This document shows positions 5,498 through 19,048 of a DNA stretch of 64,000 nucleotides, piece by piece. The translations under genes and the position numbers were made by a program. The stretch lies in NCBI GenBank assembly GCA_024911895.1, contig GCA_024911895.1_3948.1; one strand, 5' to 3'. Under the pieces are notes generated by a model. It saw only the letters and a list, made by a program, of their open reading frames with translations. It was not told the DNA's origin and searched no databases. The first letter of the stretch is position 1, and each line of letters starts with the position of its first letter. The stretch comes from a phage.

Positions 5498-5586
5498 TTT
5501 TGAATCTCCAGTTTAGGATTAATGTGGTAAAGCTCTTTATCTGGGGCTTAAGATATCAACTTTTAAGCCCCCTGTAAAGTACTTTA
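5498..5586 (-). repeat. family-B early cassette (hairpin GGGGCTTAA..TTAAGCCCC)
   Basis: close copy of 6314..6401; abuts the ATG of ORF 4985..5497. Confidence 0.7.
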
Positions 5587-5844
5587 TCAGATTAAATTGC
5601 CAGTTAATGATAAGTGCATTTTATAGCCTTTTTTGGTAAACACGTTCACTTTACCGAGTGATTTTACACCTTTAAAAAGATTGTTTGAACTGCGTTTTAA
5701 GGTTAGTTGTTTATCAGCCTTCACGCCCCATCTTACAGCAGATGGTTTTCCGTTGTCAACAACTTTCCCGCCTAACTTTTTCGCCATGATGCGAGCGTCA
5801 TCGCGAGTTTTTGCAGTAATTACAACGTTTTTGATAATAGCCAT
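5587..5844 (-). CDS. hypothetical basic early protein (85 aa)
   Basis: ATG after family-B leader; K/R-rich. Confidence 0.5.
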   Translation of the reverse strand: MAIIKNVVITAKTRDDARIMAKKLGGKVVDNGKPSAVRWGVKADKQLTLKRSSNNLFKGVKSLGKVNVFTKKGYKMHLSLTGNLI

Positions 5845-5932
5845 TTTAGAATCTCCAATTTAGGATTTAGTGGTAAAGCTCTTTATCTGGGGCTTACTTT
5901 ATCGAACTATAAGCCCCTTGTAAAGTACTTTA
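5845..5932 (-). repeat. family-B early cassette
   Basis: 2 mismatches from 2845..2932; abuts the ATG of ORF 5587..5844. Confidence 0.7.
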
Positions 5933-6313
5933 TCAGTTAATTTTGAAAATTGTCACATAACCATCACTACCGATTATTTGAGATACTCCAGCTTTTTCTA
6001 CATGATAGCCCATATTTTCAAGATGGTAAACAGCATCATCGTAACCATATGCGCCACCCTGATAACGTCTCTTATCGCATCTTATCAGGTTTTTACCACG
6101 TCCTGCAAGTGCATTCAGTACAGCTTTTTCACTTGATAGCGTACCATCTAACATGGTTGCCGTGTAATGGTTGATTTTATTCCCGTTAATATCATACTTA
6201 AAATTGAATGCGTGAACAACAATCAATTTGCCGTTAAATTTTTCATCAAGTGACTTCTCCAGTGCGTTGCGGAAGTTGTCTTTGTTGATGAATTTCGGTG
6301 CACGATAAGCCAT
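5933..6313 (-). CDS. hypothetical early protein (126 aa)
   Basis: ATG after family-A-type leader (TAAACTAGGAGATTCAAAA). Confidence 0.55.
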   Translation of the reverse strand: MAYRAPKFINKDNFRNALEKSLDEKFNGKLIVVHAFNFKYDINGNKINHYTATMLDGTLSSEKAVLNALAGRGKNLIRCDKRRYQGGAYGYDDAVYHLENMGYHVEKAGVSQIIGSDGYVTIFKIN

Positions 6314-6401
6314 TTTTGAATCTCCTAGTTTAAGGGTTAATTTAGTAAAGCTCTTTATCTGGGGCTTAAGATATCAACTTTTAAACCCCCTGTAAAGTAC
6401 T
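6314..6401 (-). repeat. family-B early cassette
   Basis: close copy of 5498..5586; abuts the ATG of ORF 5933..6313. Confidence 0.7.
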
Positions 6402-6623
6402 TTATTTGTCGTAGTAGTAAATCGCTGTCTGCCTTGTAAATTTCTTAGTGTTTCTTGTAAGGTAGCAATTAGAATTAATAGCCGTTTCTACATAGTTGCA
6501 ATAGTCGGCTTCTGATATTCTGGACCATACGCCACAGATTTGCATGTAAAAACGTTTTGCCTTTGTGTGAATGTTAGTTGTAACCATCAATTCGCGACTG
6601 TATATCATTATTTCGCGCTCCAT
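6402..6623 (-). CDS. hypothetical early protein (73 aa)
   Basis: ORF overlapping the end of 6608..6796 (translational coupling). Confidence 0.4.
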   Translation of the reverse strand: MEREIMIYSRELMVTTNIHTKAKRFYMQICGVWSRISEADYCNYVETAINSNCYLTRNTKKFTRQTAIYYYDK

Positions 6624-6796
6624 TTCTCAAAGAGTTCAGCAGGGAAACGTTCGCTATAACCTTTTAAGGAAAAAGTGTTATCTTCGTGGATAGCTTCCAC
6701 CTGATAAACCTTATAAGAGCGTATAGTTAGCATTTTGTAAGAGTATTCGTGCTTGATGTTAACCTCATCACCAACTTTAATCTTTCTTGATGCCAT
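6608..6796 (-). CDS. hypothetical early protein (62 aa), first gene downstream of the 6847..6875 promoter
   Basis: ATG after leader AAACTGGAGATTCAAAAA. Confidence 0.5.
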   Translation of the reverse strand: MASRKIKVGDEVNIKHEYSYKMLTIRSYKVYQVEAIHEDNTFSLKGYSERFPAELFEKWSAK

Positions 6797-6846
6797 TTTT
6801 TGAATCTCCAGTTTAGGAAGTGGGCTTGATTGCCCGTCTGATGCAA

Positions 6847-6875
6847 ATATTAGATAACTATACTCAAAGAGTCAA
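6847..6875 (-). promoter_or_regulatory. sigma70-like promoter (minus strand TTGACT-17bp-TAATAT) heading the leftward early cluster
   Basis: -35 at 6870..6875 and -10 at 6847..6852 read on the minus strand; 17-bp spacer; ~50 nt upstream of the ATG of ORF 6608..6796. Confidence 0.5.
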
Positions 6876-7050
6876 TAGGAATTTTAAAAATATTTTTTGC
6901 AAAAATTGTAATGAAACGGGTGCGCGCGACTACCACAAAACAGAACTACAATCAAGAATTATTTTTCAATCCGCTACAAATTTTTCTGTTGACTTTTATT
7001 TCCAGATGTGGTAGCCTTGTGAGAAATGGCGACATCCCCACCTGCACCCA

Positions 7051-7240
7051 CCTACCTGCACAATTCTAAAATGATTTTTCTTGCCAGACCTGATTTTTCT
7101 CTGCACGTTTTGAAAATGAAAAAGCTCTTTGGAGATTACCTGCACAGTTTGAAAATGAATTTTCTCTTTGGAGTTCAAAATTATCTCTACAGATTTCTCT
7201 ACAGAACTCTACCTGCACAATCCTGAAATGAAAAAGCCCT
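7051..7240. repeat. four direct repeats, core CTGCACa(a/g)tt(c/t)TGAAAATGA, at ~7051, 7099, 7136 and 7209 in a 500-bp intergenic region
   Basis: read directly; variable spacing 37-73 bp; no coding support (the plus ORF 7026..7226 is judged spurious). Confidence 0.6.
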
Positions 7241-7304
7241 CCTTACCTGAAAAATTTACCAGATAAGAAAGGCTTAGTCTATTGTGAATATACTACGAAG
7301 TTTC

Positions 7305-8090
7305 TTAGTTCTTTGCGTCTAAGAAGGTAAGCTCTGGTGAAGAGAAAACCGTCTCGATATCCTCATCAGTTCTTGCATAGATGTAAGCATCTGCATCACT
7401 GCCAAATGTTACTGCAATCCTGTGATTGCTCTTCGACAGGTGGGTAACTAGAGCGTTACTTAGAGACATCTTTTCAACCGGAGGGTTACTTTGATGTATC
7501 TTACCTTTTCTACGTCTGAAGAGGGTAACTGCATTATCTGTGAAAACTGCTACACCTGCAAAATATTCTGGTTCACAATAGTTCTTCCAACCTGAGCGTA
7601 ACTTATGGTACATTTCACCTTCATAGACATATAGGTAAACATCTACACTCTTCATCACCTGATTGATGATAACTGTGACGGCTTGAGGGTCCAGTCCACC
7701 GATACCTGCACCAATCATAGGTAACCCAACTTTCTTCAACTGATTCACTTCACAGTATCTGTTAAGCTGTTTCAAAGATGACTCTAAAGCACTGTATCGG
7801 GCATCTTTACCAGTCTTAAGCTGAGTGTAAAGGTTAGCTATACGGCCTTGTTTTAAACGTGCTACAGAGAAATTGCCTAGTAAATTCTCACAGGGCTTGT
7901 GGCCTATTCCACCTGCATACAGATAAACTTCTGTATCAGTCTCATATGCTTTTGGGTAAAGTTTAGAAATCTTGTCAGCGATACCTGCACCCATTAAGTT
8001 CATACAGTTGCAACCGTGACCGATGACGTCAAACTTACCTTTATCAAATGCTGCAAAGATATCGCCATTGATGATTTTTACAATACCCAT
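7305..8090 (-). CDS. macro-domain protein (ADP-ribose binding/processing; TARG1/OARD1-like N-terminal domain) with ~110-aa C-terminal extension
   Basis: motifs GHGCNCMNLMGAGIA and LPMIGAGIGGLD match, from memory, the TARG1-type macro signatures (CRMGAGIA ... PRIGCGLDRL). Confidence 0.55.
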   Translation of the reverse strand: MGIVKIINGDIFAAFDKGKFDVIGHGCNCMNLMGAGIADKISKLYPKAYETDTEVYLYAGGIGHKPCENLLGNFSVARLKQGRIANLYTQLKTGKDARYSALESSLKQLNRYCEVNQLKKVGLPMIGAGIGGLDPQAVTVIINQVMKSVDVYLYVYEGEMYHKLRSGWKNYCEPEYFAGVAVFTDNAVTLFRRRKGKIHQSNPPVEKMSLSNALVTHLSKSNHRIAVTFGSDADAYIYARTDEDIETVFSSPELTFLDAKN

Positions 8091-8327
8091 TTAACATCTC
8101 TCCCAAGATTCTTTATCTTCTGAAGGTTTTACACGTTGTCCTTCGTGGTCTACCCAGATACATCCACAACCTTCACAGATTACTGGCATTGCATAGCCAG
8201 CTTTAAAGTCATCTTCAGTGATAAGACCTTTTAAGTCTCCTGTATCACGCCCGAACATTTCGATAGCACAATCTTTGCAGAAATCAGCCATGAATAATTG
8301 CCTCTTGAATGATGATGCCTTCGCCAC
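8091..8327 (-). CDS. hypothetical Cys-rich small protein (78 aa)
   Basis: CKDC ... CEGCGC cysteine pairs suggest a zinc-binding fold. Confidence 0.45.
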   Translation of the reverse strand: MAKASSFKRQLFMADFCKDCAIEMFGRDTGDLKGLITEDDFKAGYAMPVICEGCGCIWVDHEGQRVKPSEDKESWERC

Positions 8328-8517
8328 AGCGACTTTTGAAGTCTTCTAATGGTTCAGAGATGAAGCCGCGTAAACGGTCACTGAATTTACGTTTTAAACC
8401 CTTCTTATAAGTTAGCACATCTTCCCCTGCAAACGGGACGACTTCATCTCTCCCTATGAATACTGCTGAACGTACAATCTTGCGGGTCTTTTTATCTCTG
8501 GCTAGTATTACTTTCAT
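8284..8517 (-). CDS. hypothetical protein (77 aa)
   Basis: ORF in an operon-like array; no domain recognised. Confidence 0.4.
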   Translation of the reverse strand: MKVILARDKKTRKIVRSAVFIGRDEVVPFAGEDVLTYKKGLKRKFSDRLRGFISEPLEDFKSRCGEGIIIQEAIIHG

Positions 8518-8818
8518 AGTTTACCTTCTCAGTTAGCTCATACAAGTCAACATGCTCAATGCTATCAATGTTGATACCAATCTTTTTGAAGCGTTCTATC
8601 ACTTCGTTGTCAGTCATCCATATCAGACACCAATGATTATGGATGGATTCCTCAAGAAGGTCAACACAATCTTTAAAAGTTTTTGTATCACTTCTCGTTC
8701 CAACTACTGCGATTGTTCCATATAGCCACTTACCATTGCCATAAGACACTTGTGCTACGCCAACTTCTTTATCTTTCTCGTAGTAAACGGCTACAAAGTC
8801 TCTTCCATTAATCTGCAT
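8492..8818 (-). CDS. hypothetical protein (108 aa)
   Basis: ORF in an operon-like array; no domain recognised. Confidence 0.45.
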   Translation of the reverse strand: MQINGRDFVAVYYEKDKEVGVAQVSYGNGKWLYGTIAVVGTRSDTKTFKDCVDLLEESIHNHWCLIWMTDNEVIERFKKIGINIDSIEHVDLYELTEKVNYESNTSQR

Positions 8819-8820
8819 AG

Positions 8821-9090
8821 TTACTTCCTCGTTTTAAGAACTGCTAAGATTTCTTTAGAATCTGGTAAGAACCATGTGTAGTGATTCTCTTTGATTTCTG
8901 GATGAGTGTCAACCTTTATTTTGCACTCTTTACCAACATGCTTAAGCTGTGCTGTGACACCTTGCATAAAGATATGACACATCACATTATCCATAATGGT
9001 TGGTATGAAGTCAATTCGCATATAAGTTTCTTTTGGTCGTGGTAGTAGTAAGTAACCTTCTACATAGAAAGTATCTTCGTTCTCTGTCAT
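8821..9090 (-). CDS. hypothetical protein (89 aa)
   Basis: ORF in an operon-like array. Confidence 0.45.
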   Translation of the reverse strand: MTENEDTFYVEGYLLLPRPKETYMRIDFIPTIMDNVMCHIFMQGVTAQLKHVGKECKIKVDTHPEIKENHYTWFLPDSKEILAVLKTRK

Positions 9091-9356
9091 TGCTGTTTGT
9101 TCCCTAATAAAATCATGTCAATAAGGTTATTAGCTTTTATAGTGCACTGGTAAAAACCATCACGATAAAACTCAAGGGCTGCTGCCACATCACTACCAGT
9201 ATTGCCTTTGACAGTGAATCTTGATTCTTCTTGAGTGTACTTGTCACTCTCACTTACTCGGGAGTTTTTGAATGTACTGTTCACTTTGTTCGTTGAACAC
9301 CCTGACATAATTATCAGTAACACAAACATTATAAAACTCTGGCTTAGTTTTTTCAT
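9087..9356 (-). CDS. lipoprotein (89-aa precursor); candidate o-spanin or superinfection-exclusion lipoprotein
   Basis: signal peptide MKKLSQSFIMFVLLIIMSGC with lipobox MSG-C; start lies inside the 3' end of 9250..9597 in another frame; AGAGG RBS. Confidence 0.45.
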   Translation of the reverse strand: MKKLSQSFIMFVLLIIMSGCSTNKVNSTFKNSRVSESDKYTQEESRFTVKGNTGSDVAAALEFYRDGFYQCTIKANNLIDMILLGNKQQ

Positions 9357-9597
9357 ATGTTAGTACCTCTTTTGTATGCTTATTCTTAGCAAGCACATCT
9401 TTCAAATCATTTTTGTAATTAGTGCTGAGTGTGGCTAAACCTTCCTGATAAGCATCTTTAGCAACACTTATCAGCTTCTCATTGTTTAACTCAGCTTCAG
9501 CAACTTGGTAGTCTCTATAAGAGTATCCTCCCCAGACACCTGCCCCAACTAAGAAAACAATTATGAAAGTAGCTTGGCAGAACTCTTTAAATGTCAT
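9250..9597 (-). CDS. type-II membrane protein with helical periplasmic domain; candidate i-spanin (115 aa)
   Basis: N-terminal TM ATFIIVFLVGAGVWGG; 107-nt out-of-frame overlap with the downstream lipoprotein gene. Confidence 0.4.
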   Translation of the reverse strand: MTFKEFCQATFIIVFLVGAGVWGGYSYRDYQVAEAELNNEKLISVAKDAYQEGLATLSTNYKNDLKDVLAKNKHTKEVLTYEKTKPEFYNVCVTDNYVRVFNEQSEQYIQKLPSK

Positions 9598-15578: not shown

Positions 15579-17360
15579 TTAAAGCTGCTTGTCAATATTA
15601 TTTCGAATATCACCAAGAGTTGTGTAACCGAACTGCTCAGAGTCGCTAAAGACTAAACGTAAAGCACAAGCTGGATGCTCAAGTGCATCTGCAAAACTCT
15701 GGAATCCATAGCCGTCTACAGCTTTCAGACTCTCACCATCCCACATAGGGGCTACACCACCAAAAGCAGACTTCTTAACACCACTATCTGTTTTAGGGTC
15801 TTTTGCAAGCATAATCTCTTTACCACCAATGCTTGCAAGAGTTGCTTTGACAGCAAATGCAAAGGTGTCACGAGTCATGTACTGGTAAGTGTAAGAACCC
15901 ACACCAAACACTACGTTAGAGCTTGCAAAACCCATTTCATACAAACGCTTCAGGATTTCGTTTGCACGTTCCAACGTGATAGAGTCACCATAAATAAGGC
16001 CAATGTGCTCATCCAGCACCTTAAAGCCTTTAGAGTTGATAGTTCCTCCAAAGATGTTATACAGTGTTTTGATAGCTCCATCAATCTCCGCTACAGGACG
16101 TGTTACAACGTTTGCAGAACCAACCATATAAGCATTTTTCAACAGCACTGTATCAGCAACTTCAAAGTCTTCTCTGTCAACAACCATTTCGTAGCCTTCT
16201 GACAGTAGCCATCCAGCAATACCATAACTGATATTTTCAAGCTTCATGTTCAGAACAGCATTCAACATCGTGTCGCTGGCTTCAAGCTTGCTTAAGTGTT
16301 CGTAATAAGCCTTTTTAGCACACTCTAAATGGATTGCTTTGTATCCTGCGACAATATGTACAGGGTCTCCAGAATCAGGACGAATTACCAGTTTACCATC
16401 ACGTCCCATAATCTCTTTGCGGAGTTCTGGTAATATGACTGATACAGTCCTCCAGAAATTATAAGTATCTGAGACAACACTTGCAATACCAGTTGGGTAA
16501 GTCTCTGTTAAAAAACGACGGAAGGTTTGTAACTCACCTTTAAAACGTCTTTCATCTTCAATCAACTCATTACCACCTTCCCAAGCAATGTTTGCACACA
16601 TTACAGAGTGTTCAGTGGCTGGTACAGAGCTACCAATATCAGAGATTGGGTAGGACTGTCCATAGATACGTTTAGCTGTATACACAGCAGGAAAACTGTC
16701 AGTTCCTTTAAAGCTTGTTAAGTGACCTACAGCGTTAAATGCATCATCAGTAAAGCCGGACATGCCGCGCATAGCAAAGTCATGGCACTGATAAGGTAAA
16801 TGCAAGTCGTTGTCACAAGTAAGGTCAGCCCACTTCTTACAAATGCGTTTGTAATGTAATGCAATAGTTGCAATGGTGCAAGCCTTCCAAATCTCAGCAG
16901 AGAAAGCATCTTCCAGATAACCTGCTACCCAATGGAAACCTGAAACAGTGTTCTGGAAGACAATCATTGGGACACGCATCGGGACAACTGTGCCTTCTTC
17001 TACAGCGTATACTTCAACTGGTAGGTAACCTAAGTCGTGAAGTGCTTCCCAATGCTCTCGACCGATAGCATCTTTACCCAGAACACCATTCATGACTTCT
17101 AAGATTTCGTCAATTGCTTCTTTTTTATCACGTTCAAAGAAAGTGGCGTTCCAGTGGTCTATCAGGTAATCTTTAACAAAACGTTGAATACCAAAAGCCA
17201 CTACACCATCAATTACTAAGGGGCTGTTAAACCACTTATCACTACGTGGTGTCAGGTTCAACATAAGATATTGCGTAGCATCTGGATACTGATATATATG
17301 TGATGCCTTGTAAGCATCTGCATTAAGACCTGCTGGTACTGCGTAAAGTGACTTACTCAT
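15579..17360 (-). CDS. nicotinamide phosphoribosyltransferase-family protein (Nampt-like; could instead be a nicotinamide-ADPR transferase-type enzyme)
   Basis: 593 aa; overall Nampt-like composition and length class; adjacent to a Prs-like gene; family call from memory of phage NadV-type proteins. Confidence 0.6.
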   Translation of the reverse strand: MSKSLYAVPAGLNADAYKASHIYQYPDATQYLMLNLTPRSDKWFNSPLVIDGVVAFGIQRFVKDYLIDHWNATFFERDKKEAIDEILEVMNGVLGKDAIGREHWEALHDLGYLPVEVYAVEEGTVVPMRVPMIVFQNTVSGFHWVAGYLEDAFSAEIWKACTIATIALHYKRICKKWADLTCDNDLHLPYQCHDFAMRGMSGFTDDAFNAVGHLTSFKGTDSFPAVYTAKRIYGQSYPISDIGSSVPATEHSVMCANIAWEGGNELIEDERRFKGELQTFRRFLTETYPTGIASVVSDTYNFWRTVSVILPELRKEIMGRDGKLVIRPDSGDPVHIVAGYKAIHLECAKKAYYEHLSKLEASDTMLNAVLNMKLENISYGIAGWLLSEGYEMVVDREDFEVADTVLLKNAYMVGSANVVTRPVAEIDGAIKTLYNIFGGTINSKGFKVLDEHIGLIYGDSITLERANEILKRLYEMGFASSNVVFGVGSYTYQYMTRDTFAFAVKATLASIGGKEIMLAKDPKTDSGVKKSAFGGVAPMWDGESLKAVDGYGFQSFADALEHPACALRLVFSDSEQFGYTTLGDIRNNIDKQL

Positions 17361-17876: not shown

Positions 17877-18758
17877 CTAATCAATGTTTGCTACAGTAAC
17901 TTGACCATAATGTGTTAAGCCACGGTCTTTAGCTTCCCCTAAAGAGTTTGTAGTGTAAATGTGGTCAATACCATTGTCAAGAAGGTTTTCAACACCTTTA
18001 GAGAAAATACCATGTGTTACATAGAGTTCCACACGTTTTGCACCTGCTTCACGAAGATGTTTAGCTGCCTCTACGAATGTTCGACCACCATCACAGATAT
18101 CATCAAGAATCATGACAGTTTTATCTGTCAAATCAACATCATCAAGGATTCGCATACCAGTTATTTCACCAGTCTTAAGGTTGCGTACTTTAGACATTGT
18201 GATATATGGTTTATCCACCTCTTTAGCAGTCTCTGCAATCTTCTTAGCAGCACCTGCATCTGGGGCTACTAAGTAGTCAACCAGAGGGTCATTTGCATAG
18301 TGGACTGCAATCTCCTTTTGAGGAATACTCTGGAAGCAATTGAAAAGGTTATCTGGAACGTAACTGTGAGGGTCAACTGCACAGACTGCACCAAATCCCA
18401 TTGCATTTACCTGTTTAGAAAAAACCTTCAAAGCTGCTGCGTCGCCTTTAAACATGTGACGGTCATATCGTGCATTTGGTAAGTAGTAAAAGATGACAGT
18501 CTTTAAAGCATAATCATGAGGAATTAAATCATCAATTGCTTCTTTAGCAAGCGCCACAGCAAACAATGTGTCTTTATCATAACCTTTTACAATCATAATC
18601 ACATTGTTGATGGATGATGCAGCATAAGCAGTAAAATCAACAAACTCTGGTGAAAAGTGTCCACCAATCTCACCAGAAGGGAATTGGATGATGTTAAACT
18701 CTTCTTCATGAGTTCCTTTAGTTGGTGAATGAACTGTAACACGTATAGATGTTTTCAT
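17877..18758 (-). CDS. ribose-phosphate pyrophosphokinase-family protein (Prs-like; could instead be an ADPR-pyrophosphate synthetase-type enzyme); start moved to the ATG at 18758
   Basis: PRPP-binding loop VMILDDICDGGRT, VDPH, APDAGA; GA-rich RBS GAGAGAGAAA; the ORF-track start at 18773 is TTG. Confidence 0.6.
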   Translation of the reverse strand: MKTSIRVTVHSPTKGTHEEEFNIIQFPSGEIGGHFSPEFVDFTAYAASSINNVIMIVKGYDKDTLFAVALAKEAIDDLIPHDYALKTVIFYYLPNARYDRHMFKGDAAALKVFSKQVNAMGFGAVCAVDPHSYVPDNLFNCFQSIPQKEIAVHYANDPLVDYLVAPDAGAAKKIAETAKEVDKPYITMSKVRNLKTGEITGMRILDDVDLTDKTVMILDDICDGGRTFVEAAKHLREAGAKRVELYVTHGIFSKGVENLLDNGIDHIYTTNSLGEAKDRGLTHYGQVTVANID

Positions 18759-18769
18759 AATTTTCTCTC

Positions 18770-19048
18770 TCAATCAAAAGTTACGTTAGTTACTGCCATT
18801 GCAGACTTGCATTTTACAGGGTCTACAACGTGATAAAGTACACTACAGTTTCCTGTGCTATCTGGCACAGGCTTTACCCATTGCTGCTTGACAGTTGGTT
18901 CTCCTAAGTCTTTGTAAGAACCATCTGTAAAGTTGTTTACCATCTCAAGTGCAATTGGCTCTGGAACATGACCACGTATCATGTACATTTCACAACCATT
19001 ACCACCTTCACTGACTAATGGTAAAATCTCCCACTTTTCTTTAGCCAT
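18770..19048 (-). CDS. hypothetical protein (92 aa)
   Basis: ORF with ATG start. Confidence 0.45.
   Translation of the reverse strand: MAKEKWEILPLVSEGGNGCEMYMIRGHVPEPIALEMVNNFTDGSYKDLGEPTVKQQWVKPVPDSTGNCSVLYHVVDPVKCKSAMAVTNVTFD

Follow-up and report, generated by a model that had tools for sequence, protein, structure and literature searches.

We analysed a 64,000-nucleotide stretch of phage DNA (GenBank assembly GCA_024911895.1, contig GCA_024911895.1_3948.1; the whole stretch is called the window below) and focused on a minus-strand gene at 7305-8090, which encodes a macro-domain protein of 261 amino acids (aa), here named the macro protein. An earlier interpretation made from the letters alone (the sequence-only reading) had placed a gene with two macro-type signature motifs at these positions and had set apart a C-terminal part of about 110 aa with no known function. 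The open reading frame (ORF) and both motifs are present exactly there, and the C-terminal part measures 105 aa and has no Pfam family. The gene and the parts of its product are as follows.

7305..8090, minus strand: complete coding sequence of the two-domain macro protein, 261 aa plus stop, ATG start; orthologue of VpaE1 ORF013
7623..8090, minus strand: macro domain, aa 1-156, ALC1-like (TARG1/DarG/SCO6735) class, from Pfam, DarG models, PDB profile search, Foldseek and Tk.4 homology
7977..8021, minus strand: motif GHGCNCMNLMGAGIA, aa 24-38, phosphate-binding loop with invariant H25, G26, N28, C29, M33, G36 and A38
7821..7835, minus strand: invariant NLYTQ, aa 86-90, with Q90 at the position of TARG1 K84, DarG K80 and SCO6735 Q85
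7689..7724, minus strand: motif LPMIGAGIGGLD, aa 123-134, second Gly-rich ADP-ribose-binding loop, in which G131 aligns with TARG1 D125
7308..7622, minus strand: C-terminal extension, aa 157-261, 105 aa, a lineage-specific orphan domain; linker helix 158-167, six beta strands and a short helix in the AlphaFold2 model

A macro domain of the ALC1-like class

Over positions 6500-9500, the window shares 96% nucleotide identity with Escherichia phage JLBYU32, and about 200 Felixounavirus genomes align to the same interval at 90-95% (both by megablast). By this similarity the window comes from a virulent Felixounavirus, that is, a Felix O1-like phage. The macro protein is 98.9% identical to ORF013 of VpaE1, which is labelled 'putative phosphatase', and orthologues occur in about 256 sequenced Ounavirinae genomes. 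The commonest label for them is "phosphatase", and other records carry "O-acetyl-ADP-ribose deacetylase", "macro domain-containing protein" or "hypothetical protein".

The sequence-only reading had proposed a profile search against macro-domain families and DarG, and the search supported the assignment. Pfam Macro (PF01661) matched aa 25-141 over profile positions 2-117 of 118, above threshold (E=1e-7, 32.4 bits against a cutoff of 22), and the PHROGs family phrog_335, annotated "phosphatase", matched over the full length of the protein (E=4e-113). DarG was the sole meaningful family match in both NCBIfam (E=1.2e-12, model positions 12-154 of 338) and PADLOC (E=2.5e-13, model positions 14-146 of 329), in each case through the macro part only. 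When the single sequence was compared with proteins of solved structure by phmmer, human TARG1/OARD1 gave the best match (E=1e-5), and Thermus DarG came next. A profile built from 21 phage homologues, T4-type proteins included, was also searched against the PDB. It matched TARG1 (E=5e-17), SCO6735 (E=6e-16), M. tuberculosis DarG (E=7e-16), BT1257 (E=1.6e-15), T. aquaticus DarG (E=1.9e-14) and yeast Poa1p (E=6.6e-14). No DarG-annotated protein from plasmids was found for direct alignment among the matches listed.

Structure prediction, which had likewise been suggested beforehand, gave a confident result. The full-length AlphaFold2 model computed from 19 homologues reached a predicted local distance difference test score (pLDDT) of 86.8 and a predicted template modelling score (pTM) of 0.86. 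Foldseek placed TARG1 nearest to this model (E=5e-10, target template modelling (TM) score 0.84), with T. aquaticus DarG at 0.82 and Poa1p at 0.75; Poa1p, although significantly matched, falls behind TARG1, SCO6735 and DarG. All Foldseek alignments to solved structures span about 155-175 columns, corresponding to the macro domain only, and the model superposes on the macro domains of TARG1, DarG, Poa1p and nsP3 with target TM scores of 0.70-0.84, as expected of the three-layer alpha/beta/alpha macro fold. Taken together, these profile and model comparisons indicate that aa 1-156 form a macro domain of the TARG1/DarG/SCO6735 (ALC1-like) class.

The phage relatives of this domain include a T4 protein with a known phenotype. 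By tblastn against phages, hundreds of T4-like genomes carry a counterpart of aa 3-160 that is about 34% identical; its gene lies beside vs and is labelled tk.4. T4 Tk.4 (NC_000866 60922-61389, "contains A1pp phosphatase motif") is 35% identical over aa 3-157 by BLASTP (E=2e-24), and the motifs HGCNC, MGxGxA, NLYTQ and P.IGAGIG are common to the two proteins, in line with the invariant motifs of phrog_335. The DarG model scored 48 bits against the macro protein versus 36 bits against T4 Tk.4. Both are products of non-structural genes of virulent enterobacterial myoviruses and carry a PHROG-style 'phosphatase' label; however, Tk.4 is a single domain of 155 aa, whereas the macro protein has the additional 105-aa C-terminal domain. 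According to a preprint of November 2025, tk.4 was the single T4 gene that was conditionally essential on DarTG2-expressing E. coli, and a clean tk.4 knockout was sensitised to DarTG2, upon which the gene was renamed adfM (10.1101/2025.11.20.689424). The name AdfM was also given, independently and in 2026, to gp104 of phage PhiKZ, which strips DarT2-made ADP-ribose from DNA in vitro (PMC13309987).

In the alignment of 19 two-domain homologues as well as in that of the 21 phage homologues, the residues H25, G26, N28, C29, M33, G36, A38, N86-L87-Y88-T89-Q90, P124, G127, G129 and I130 are invariant, as are the GAGIA and GAGIGG loops; all 20 invariant columns of the latter alignment are present in the macro protein. 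Q90 is kept in the 19 two-domain homologues and in 12 single-domain phage homologues. In the profile alignment to TARG1, Q90 faces the catalytic K84 and G131 faces D125; therefore, the Lys/Asp dyad of TARG1 is absent. The sequence-only reading had named a TARG1/OARD1-type domain, and this holds for the overall resemblance, since TARG1 is the best sequence and structure match, but not for the active site, which is of a Gln type. DarG K80 is described in the literature as equivalent to TARG1 K84, and through this alignment the macro protein has Gln in place of the catalytic Lys80 of DarG as well.

A Gln at this position is known from SCO6735 of Streptomyces coelicolor, where Gln85 stands at the DarG K80/TARG1 K84 position and the substitutions Q85A and Q85E abolish activity (literature). 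According to the literature, this enzyme removes thymidine-linked ADP-ribose from DNA and gives protection from DarT, and an activated water is probably part of its mechanism. The equivalence of Q85 and Q90 is transitive through TARG1; the SCO6735 alignment obtained with a second PDB query stopped short of its Gln position. In addition, H25 and N28 would mirror H24 and N27 of SCO6735 (H-x-x-N) and would parallel N22 of DarG, judging by the pattern of the first loop. On these alignments, the whole phage Tk.4/AdfM-type family, T4 protein included, consists of Gln-type ALC1-like macrodomains. No description of such a family-wide Gln active site was found in the literature. The Gln-type catalytic variant, little studied and so far represented by a single enzyme of Streptomyces, is thereby extended to thousands of genes in phages, T4 AdfM among them.

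The macro protein can thus be set beside four characterised proteins in addition to T4 Tk.4. Human TARG1/OARD1 (PDB 4j5r, 4j5s) is the closest solved protein in sequence and structure, but it has a single domain and the Lys84/Asp125 dyad instead of Q90/G131. SCO6735 (PDB 5e3b) shares the Gln and the H-x-x-N of the first loop, whereas it is a bacterial, single-domain protein with a DNA-damage promoter and a longer central loop. DarG2 of T. aquaticus and M. tuberculosis (PDB 5m31, 5m3e, 5m3i) resembles the macro protein in macro class and fold and in its plan of an N-terminal macro domain with a C-terminal accessory domain. It differs in its Lys80 and in its C-terminal DarT-binding domain (profile positions ~155-338), which has no sequence counterpart in the macro protein, nor was a similar solved fold found; moreover, no darT adjoins the macro gene. 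PhiKZ gp104 is alike, by its description, as a phage macrodomain that acts as an anti-DarTG2 factor, but it is of the Lys type (N23/K78) and enters the phage nucleus by import.

The C-terminal extension and exchange at the locus

The extension is predicted to be a folded part of the protein. Its pLDDT lies mostly at 83-92 in the full-length model, and a mean of 79 was obtained when it was modelled alone; the pLDDT values, together with the pTM of the full-length model, suggest that the extension packs against the macro domain. It occurs at similar length in 29 IMG/VR loci, and metagenomic proteins whose overall identity is as low as 32% have it too. Distant homologues match it at only 13-19% identity, versus 40-53% for the macro domain, and the conserved positions are reduced to P174, G179 and, nearly, Y236. 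Among 19 distinct co-linear Felixounavirus alleles, the extension has a ratio of nonsynonymous to synonymous substitution rates (dN/dS) of 0.171, and the macro domain one of 0.068; both domains are under purifying selection.

Searches for relatives of the extension returned its own family. Pfam gave no match for the extension even at E<=10, and none for the divergent C-terminal variants; in PHROGs only its own family was matched, apart from noise at E=0.026. With the extension fragment alone, a word-indexed search across 5.8 billion proteins found nothing, while an exhaustive hmmsearch against 1.84 billion representatives gave 10 matches, which were two-domain relatives, fragments and repeat-protein noise, with no stand-alone copy. 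The giant repeat proteins among these matches were taken as pattern matches, and the one inspected (P0038) consists of PQQ-type beta-propeller repeats. Foldseek of the extension against BFVD found the SUSP2 orthologue only, and no solved structure was similar. Within the 64-kb window there is no paralogue of the macro gene or of the extension; a stand-alone paralogue seemingly indicated by weak BPS17L1 and finno matches was discarded, as these are the orthologous gene in a divergent allele. By sequence and predicted fold, then, the extension appears to have no credible homologue outside its own gene family, and no description of a two-domain architecture with such an orphan, fast-evolving C-terminal fold was found in the literature.

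A charge signature was considered as well. The net charge of the extension varies from -5 to +4 across homologues, and it is therefore unlike a conserved acidic mimic of single-stranded DNA (ssDNA), as in the C-terminal domain of DarG, or a conserved basic DNA-binding surface. The basic RRRKGK hairpin is not conserved either, and we rejected both signatures as general features of the extension.

The locus itself shows signs of exchange. Even distant homologues, at 32-35% identity, keep the order rIIA-rIIB, HAD/PNKP gene, macro gene. In BPS17L1-type loci (L002, Salmonella phage BPS17L1; L033/L034), the flanks are about 95% identical at the DNA level, while the gene body at 7948-7252 has no nucleotide similarity, and identity in the encoded macro protein falls to 42% overall and to about 28% in its C-terminal part. 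In this arrangement the macro gene body is exchanged as a cassette between phages that are otherwise about 95% identical. For 7252-7948, about 31 phage records show an identity of 60-80%. In two further loci (L035/L036), the proteins have 260 aa and a tail without hhalign similarity to the extension profile, yet they match the same phrog_335 columns. Three others (L062, L082, L084) join the macro core to short acidic helical tails, and the proteins of T4-like phages are tailless. Other fusions were seen outside these loci: on Bacillus thuringiensis plasmids the macro core is fused to SLOG-family proteins (H113-H120), and a 339-aa metagenomic protein (P0027) combines a PF20274 domain with a macro domain. 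A constant enzymatic core, variable tails and cassette exchange would together correspond to the usual pattern of counter-defence in an arms race.

Proposed function and alternative explanations

We propose that the macro protein counters DarT2 as an AdfM-type factor, that it is probably made early, and that it acts by Gln- and water-dependent DNA de-ADP-ribosylation, with a C-terminal accessory module for specificity or partner binding. The balance of the evidence tips modestly toward this proposal. The macro domain would bind ADP-ribose and hydrolyse the ADP-ribose that DarT2-type toxins put on thymidine in single-stranded phage DNA, and its removal would restore phage replication. Catalysis would be of the SCO6735 kind, with Q90, together with H25 and N28, positioning substrate and water, and with no nucleophilic Lys. 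The extension would be a separate, fast-evolving, beta-rich module that most likely provides partner specificity (for the toxin, ssDNA or a replisome component) and not chemistry. Domain identity and class, motif conservation, homology to T4 AdfM, the fold model and selective constraint follow directly from the comparisons above; the substrate, the anti-DarTG2 role, early expression and any role of the C-terminal domain are proposals built on them. A counter to DarT-like toxins had already been considered plausible in the sequence-only reading; genetic work has meanwhile demonstrated such a role for Tk.4/AdfM, the homologue in T4, and biochemical work for PhiKZ gp104, and for the macro protein homology argues in its favour. 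Going by one account, E. coli is among the carriers of DarTG systems (PMC7003065). The macro part joins a family with a function worked out in 2025-2026, whereas the orphan domain fused to it is uncharacterised.

Several points weigh against this proposal. The DarG equivalog model NF048014 was matched with 47.8 bits only, against a cutoff of 250. Macro domains switch substrate easily, Poa1p and BT1257 are nearly as close as the top matches, the identity with Tk.4 is just 35%, and the extension varies in net charge. SCO6735 is the single characterised enzyme behind the Gln-type mechanism, because PhiKZ AdfM and DarG use Lys. For T4 AdfM, a preprint gives genetic evidence, and the biochemistry is argued by analogy (10.1101/2025.11.20.689424); a systematic survey argued for soluble ADP-ribose derivatives as the targets of most macro domains in phages (Iyer et al. 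2022, PMC9503650). The literature yielded no study in which Felix O1-like phages are connected with DarTG or with the macro gene.

A bolder version of the proposal concerns the extension, which might be a second, non-enzymatic anti-defence module that clamps DarT2 or another toxin, or anchors the hydrolase on ssDNA or at the replisome. The enzyme-plus-binder architecture of DarG would then have been convergently rebuilt with an unrelated and undescribed fold. We put this forward tentatively and consider it rather unlikely; if true, the protein would be a self-contained 'orphan antitoxin', and variable host toxins, co-evolving with it, would account for its rapid divergence and cassette replacement. 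If the extension binds toxin or DNA, it would be an example of phages elaborating a borrowed antitoxin.

Among the alternatives to DNA de-ADP-ribosylation, removal of ADP-ribose from protein or RNA, where it would be set by host ADP-ribosyltransferase (ART) toxins such as mRNA-modifying CmdT-like enzymes, or from several macromolecular substrates, has the most to recommend it, although we regard it as unlikely. TARG1 and SCO6735 act on Asp/Glu-linked protein ADP-ribose as well as on DNA, and TARG1 is the nearest structural neighbour of the macro protein. However, an ART gene was not noticed in the vicinity of the locus, the one defence family that the protein resembles is DarG, which is inactive on proteins, and the phenotype of the characterised phage homologue is specific to DarTG2 (10.1101/2025.11.20.689424).

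The 'phosphatase' labels of this family and the A1pp motif named in the T4 tk.4 record would suit a housekeeping small-molecule hydrolase, either a Poa1p-like ADP-ribose-1''-phosphate phosphatase or an O-acetyl-ADP-ribose deacetylase, that clears by-products of RNA repair or of nicotinamide adenine dinucleotide (NAD) metabolism. Poa1p and BT1257 are strong matches (E=6.6e-14 and 1.6e-15) and are the best PDB matches for T4-type Tk.4; a HAD/PNKP-like gene, PseT-like in VpaE1, is kept in the cluster even in distant relatives; and NAD-salvage genes are found elsewhere in the genome. Nevertheless, TARG1, SCO6735 and DarG outscore Poa1p, and T4 Tk.4 has a DarTG2 phenotype (10.1101/2025.11.20.689424). 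No KptA/Tpt1-type enzyme that would generate ADP-ribose 1'',2''-cyclic phosphate (Appr>p) was noticed, although no systematic search was made, and both the cassette-like allelic replacement and the fast-evolving appended domain are unexpected for a metabolic clean-up enzyme. Such a housekeeping role is, in our judgement, quite improbable.

Degradation or sequestration of ADP-ribose-derived immune signals or toxic metabolites, such as the glycocyclic ADP-ribose (gcADPR) of Thoeris or second messengers derived from ADP-ribose, was predicted for most phage macro domains by comparative genomics (Iyer et al. 2022, PMC9503650) and would agree with the NAD+ salvage genes of this genome, which counter NAD-depleting immunity, and with the fusion of some relatives to nucleotide-signalling SLOG or cREC-type domains (the plasmid matches; P0027), but it is without experimental precedent in this macro clade, the closest characterised relatives (SCO6735, DarG, TARG1 and T4 AdfM) act on macromolecular ADP-ribose, and we consider it very unlikely.

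The assignment as an AdfM-type factor predicts that Ounavirinae carriers of the gene resist DarTG2 and that its deletion sensitises them. Felix O1-like phages are widely used in Salmonella and E. coli typing, biocontrol and therapy, and it is their early "hypothetical" genes that decide which defence-carrying strains are killed.

Transcription unit, downstream array and other features of the window

The following features surround the macro gene or lie farther along the window.

8091..8327, minus strand: upstream Cys-rich small ORF (CxxC...CxGC; MADFCKDC...CEGCGC), 78 aa, 66 aa in annotated relatives
7234..7275, minus strand: intrinsic terminator, a 17-pair stem followed by a T-run, which begins 30 nt past the stop and ends the transcription unit
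7055..7231, minus strand: four direct copies of the 20-nt motif TCATTTTMRAAYTGTGCAGG (gene strand), at 7055, 7100, 7139 and 7212
6875-6847: strong sigma70-like promoter, TTGACT-17-TAATAT, which drives the next gene (6608-6796)
15579-17360, minus strand: NAMPT-like gene, 593 aa, PF04095 and PF18127
17377-17868, minus strand: HNH homing-endonuclease gene with a weak AP2-like match, inserted between the NAMPT-like and PRPP-synthetase-like genes
17877-18773, minus strand: phosphoribosyl pyrophosphate (PRPP)-synthetase-like gene, 298 aa

The macro gene lies a few kb downstream of rIIA, rIIB and a PseT-like HAD gene, and closes a tightly packed minus-strand series of small genes that begins after a terminator at 9638-9621; the transcription unit is therefore flanked by this terminator at its start and by the one at 7275-7234 at its end. 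We infer from the proximity of rIIA/rIIB that the region is transcribed early and that the macro gene is an early gene. Its ATG is preceded by GGGAGAG, which resembles a Shine-Dalgarno sequence, and directly adjoins the stop codon of the upstream Cys-rich ORF, with which the macro gene is co-transcribed. This small ORF probably encodes a zinc ribbon. It is kept in Felixouna-, Susp-, Moogle- and BPS17L1-type phages, that is, in the closer lineages only, and was rejected as a conserved partner gene on that ground. In a distant relative (L004), a 63-aa ORF with an unrelated-looking CxxC...CxxC pattern lies at its position. The neighbours of the macro gene are small phage ORFs, spanin-like genes and the terminator, and nothing DarT-like was found beside it in a Pfam scan of the neighbours or in the annotations of relatives.

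A regulatory gap of 500 bp had been noted downstream of the gene. Counted from the stop at 7305 up to the start of the next minus-strand ORF at 6796, it is 508 bp long, and it contains the terminator and the promoter at 6875-6847, which is conserved across Felixouna-, Susp- and Moogle-type phages. The copies of TCATTTTMRAAYTGTGCAGG lie about 74, 147, 186 and 231 nt past the macro stop codon, and no further copy occurs in the 64 kb, where 0.08 would be expected by chance. The number of four copies and their spacing are kept in 25 of 27 closer loci (Felixouna-, Susp- and Moogle-type), the other two having three copies; three copies are found in BPS17L1-type loci and two in L035/L036, where the protein is only 42-45% identical. 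The array is thus better conserved than the macro gene before it and is linked to the 3' end of the gene in all relatives. It could represent iterons, operator sites or a specialised promoter array. No Rfam family matched the downstream gap, and no inflection of GC skew, which would be a sign of an origin, was seen there; the RNA fold z-score of -3.1 is largely the contribution of the terminator.

Between the array and the promoter, the stretch 6990-7050 is G-rich on the gene strand in the window (GGTGGGTGCAGGTGGGGATGTCGCC...), while its counterpart in four closer aligned relatives is the C-rich CCCCCTCTTACTCCCCCTCC, and neither is found in the more distant L035. On this comparison it is a local replacement, set in intergenic DNA that is conserved elsewhere. 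Ahead of the promoter lies the AT-rich, palindromic AAAAATATTTTTAAAA, the whole region spanning 6847-6916.

The NAD-related pair that the sequence-only reading had placed at 15.6-18.8 kb was recovered in both its members; its tie to the macro gene amounts to co-occurrence in one genome. The NAD-salvage genes lie 8-10 kb from the macro gene, and because rIIA/rIIB and several transcription units intervene, there is no specific linkage between them. They fit the general theme of countering NAD- and ADP-ribose-based immunity.

Between small minus-strand genes on the other side of the gap, a 76-nt intergenic module is present in three copies (5512-5587, 5858-5933 and 6330-6405) that are 79-93% identical. 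Each copy contains a GGGGCTTAAG...CTTAAGCCCC hairpin with promoter-like hexamers, and the module, which recurs in relatives, is probably a repeated terminator-promoter cassette.

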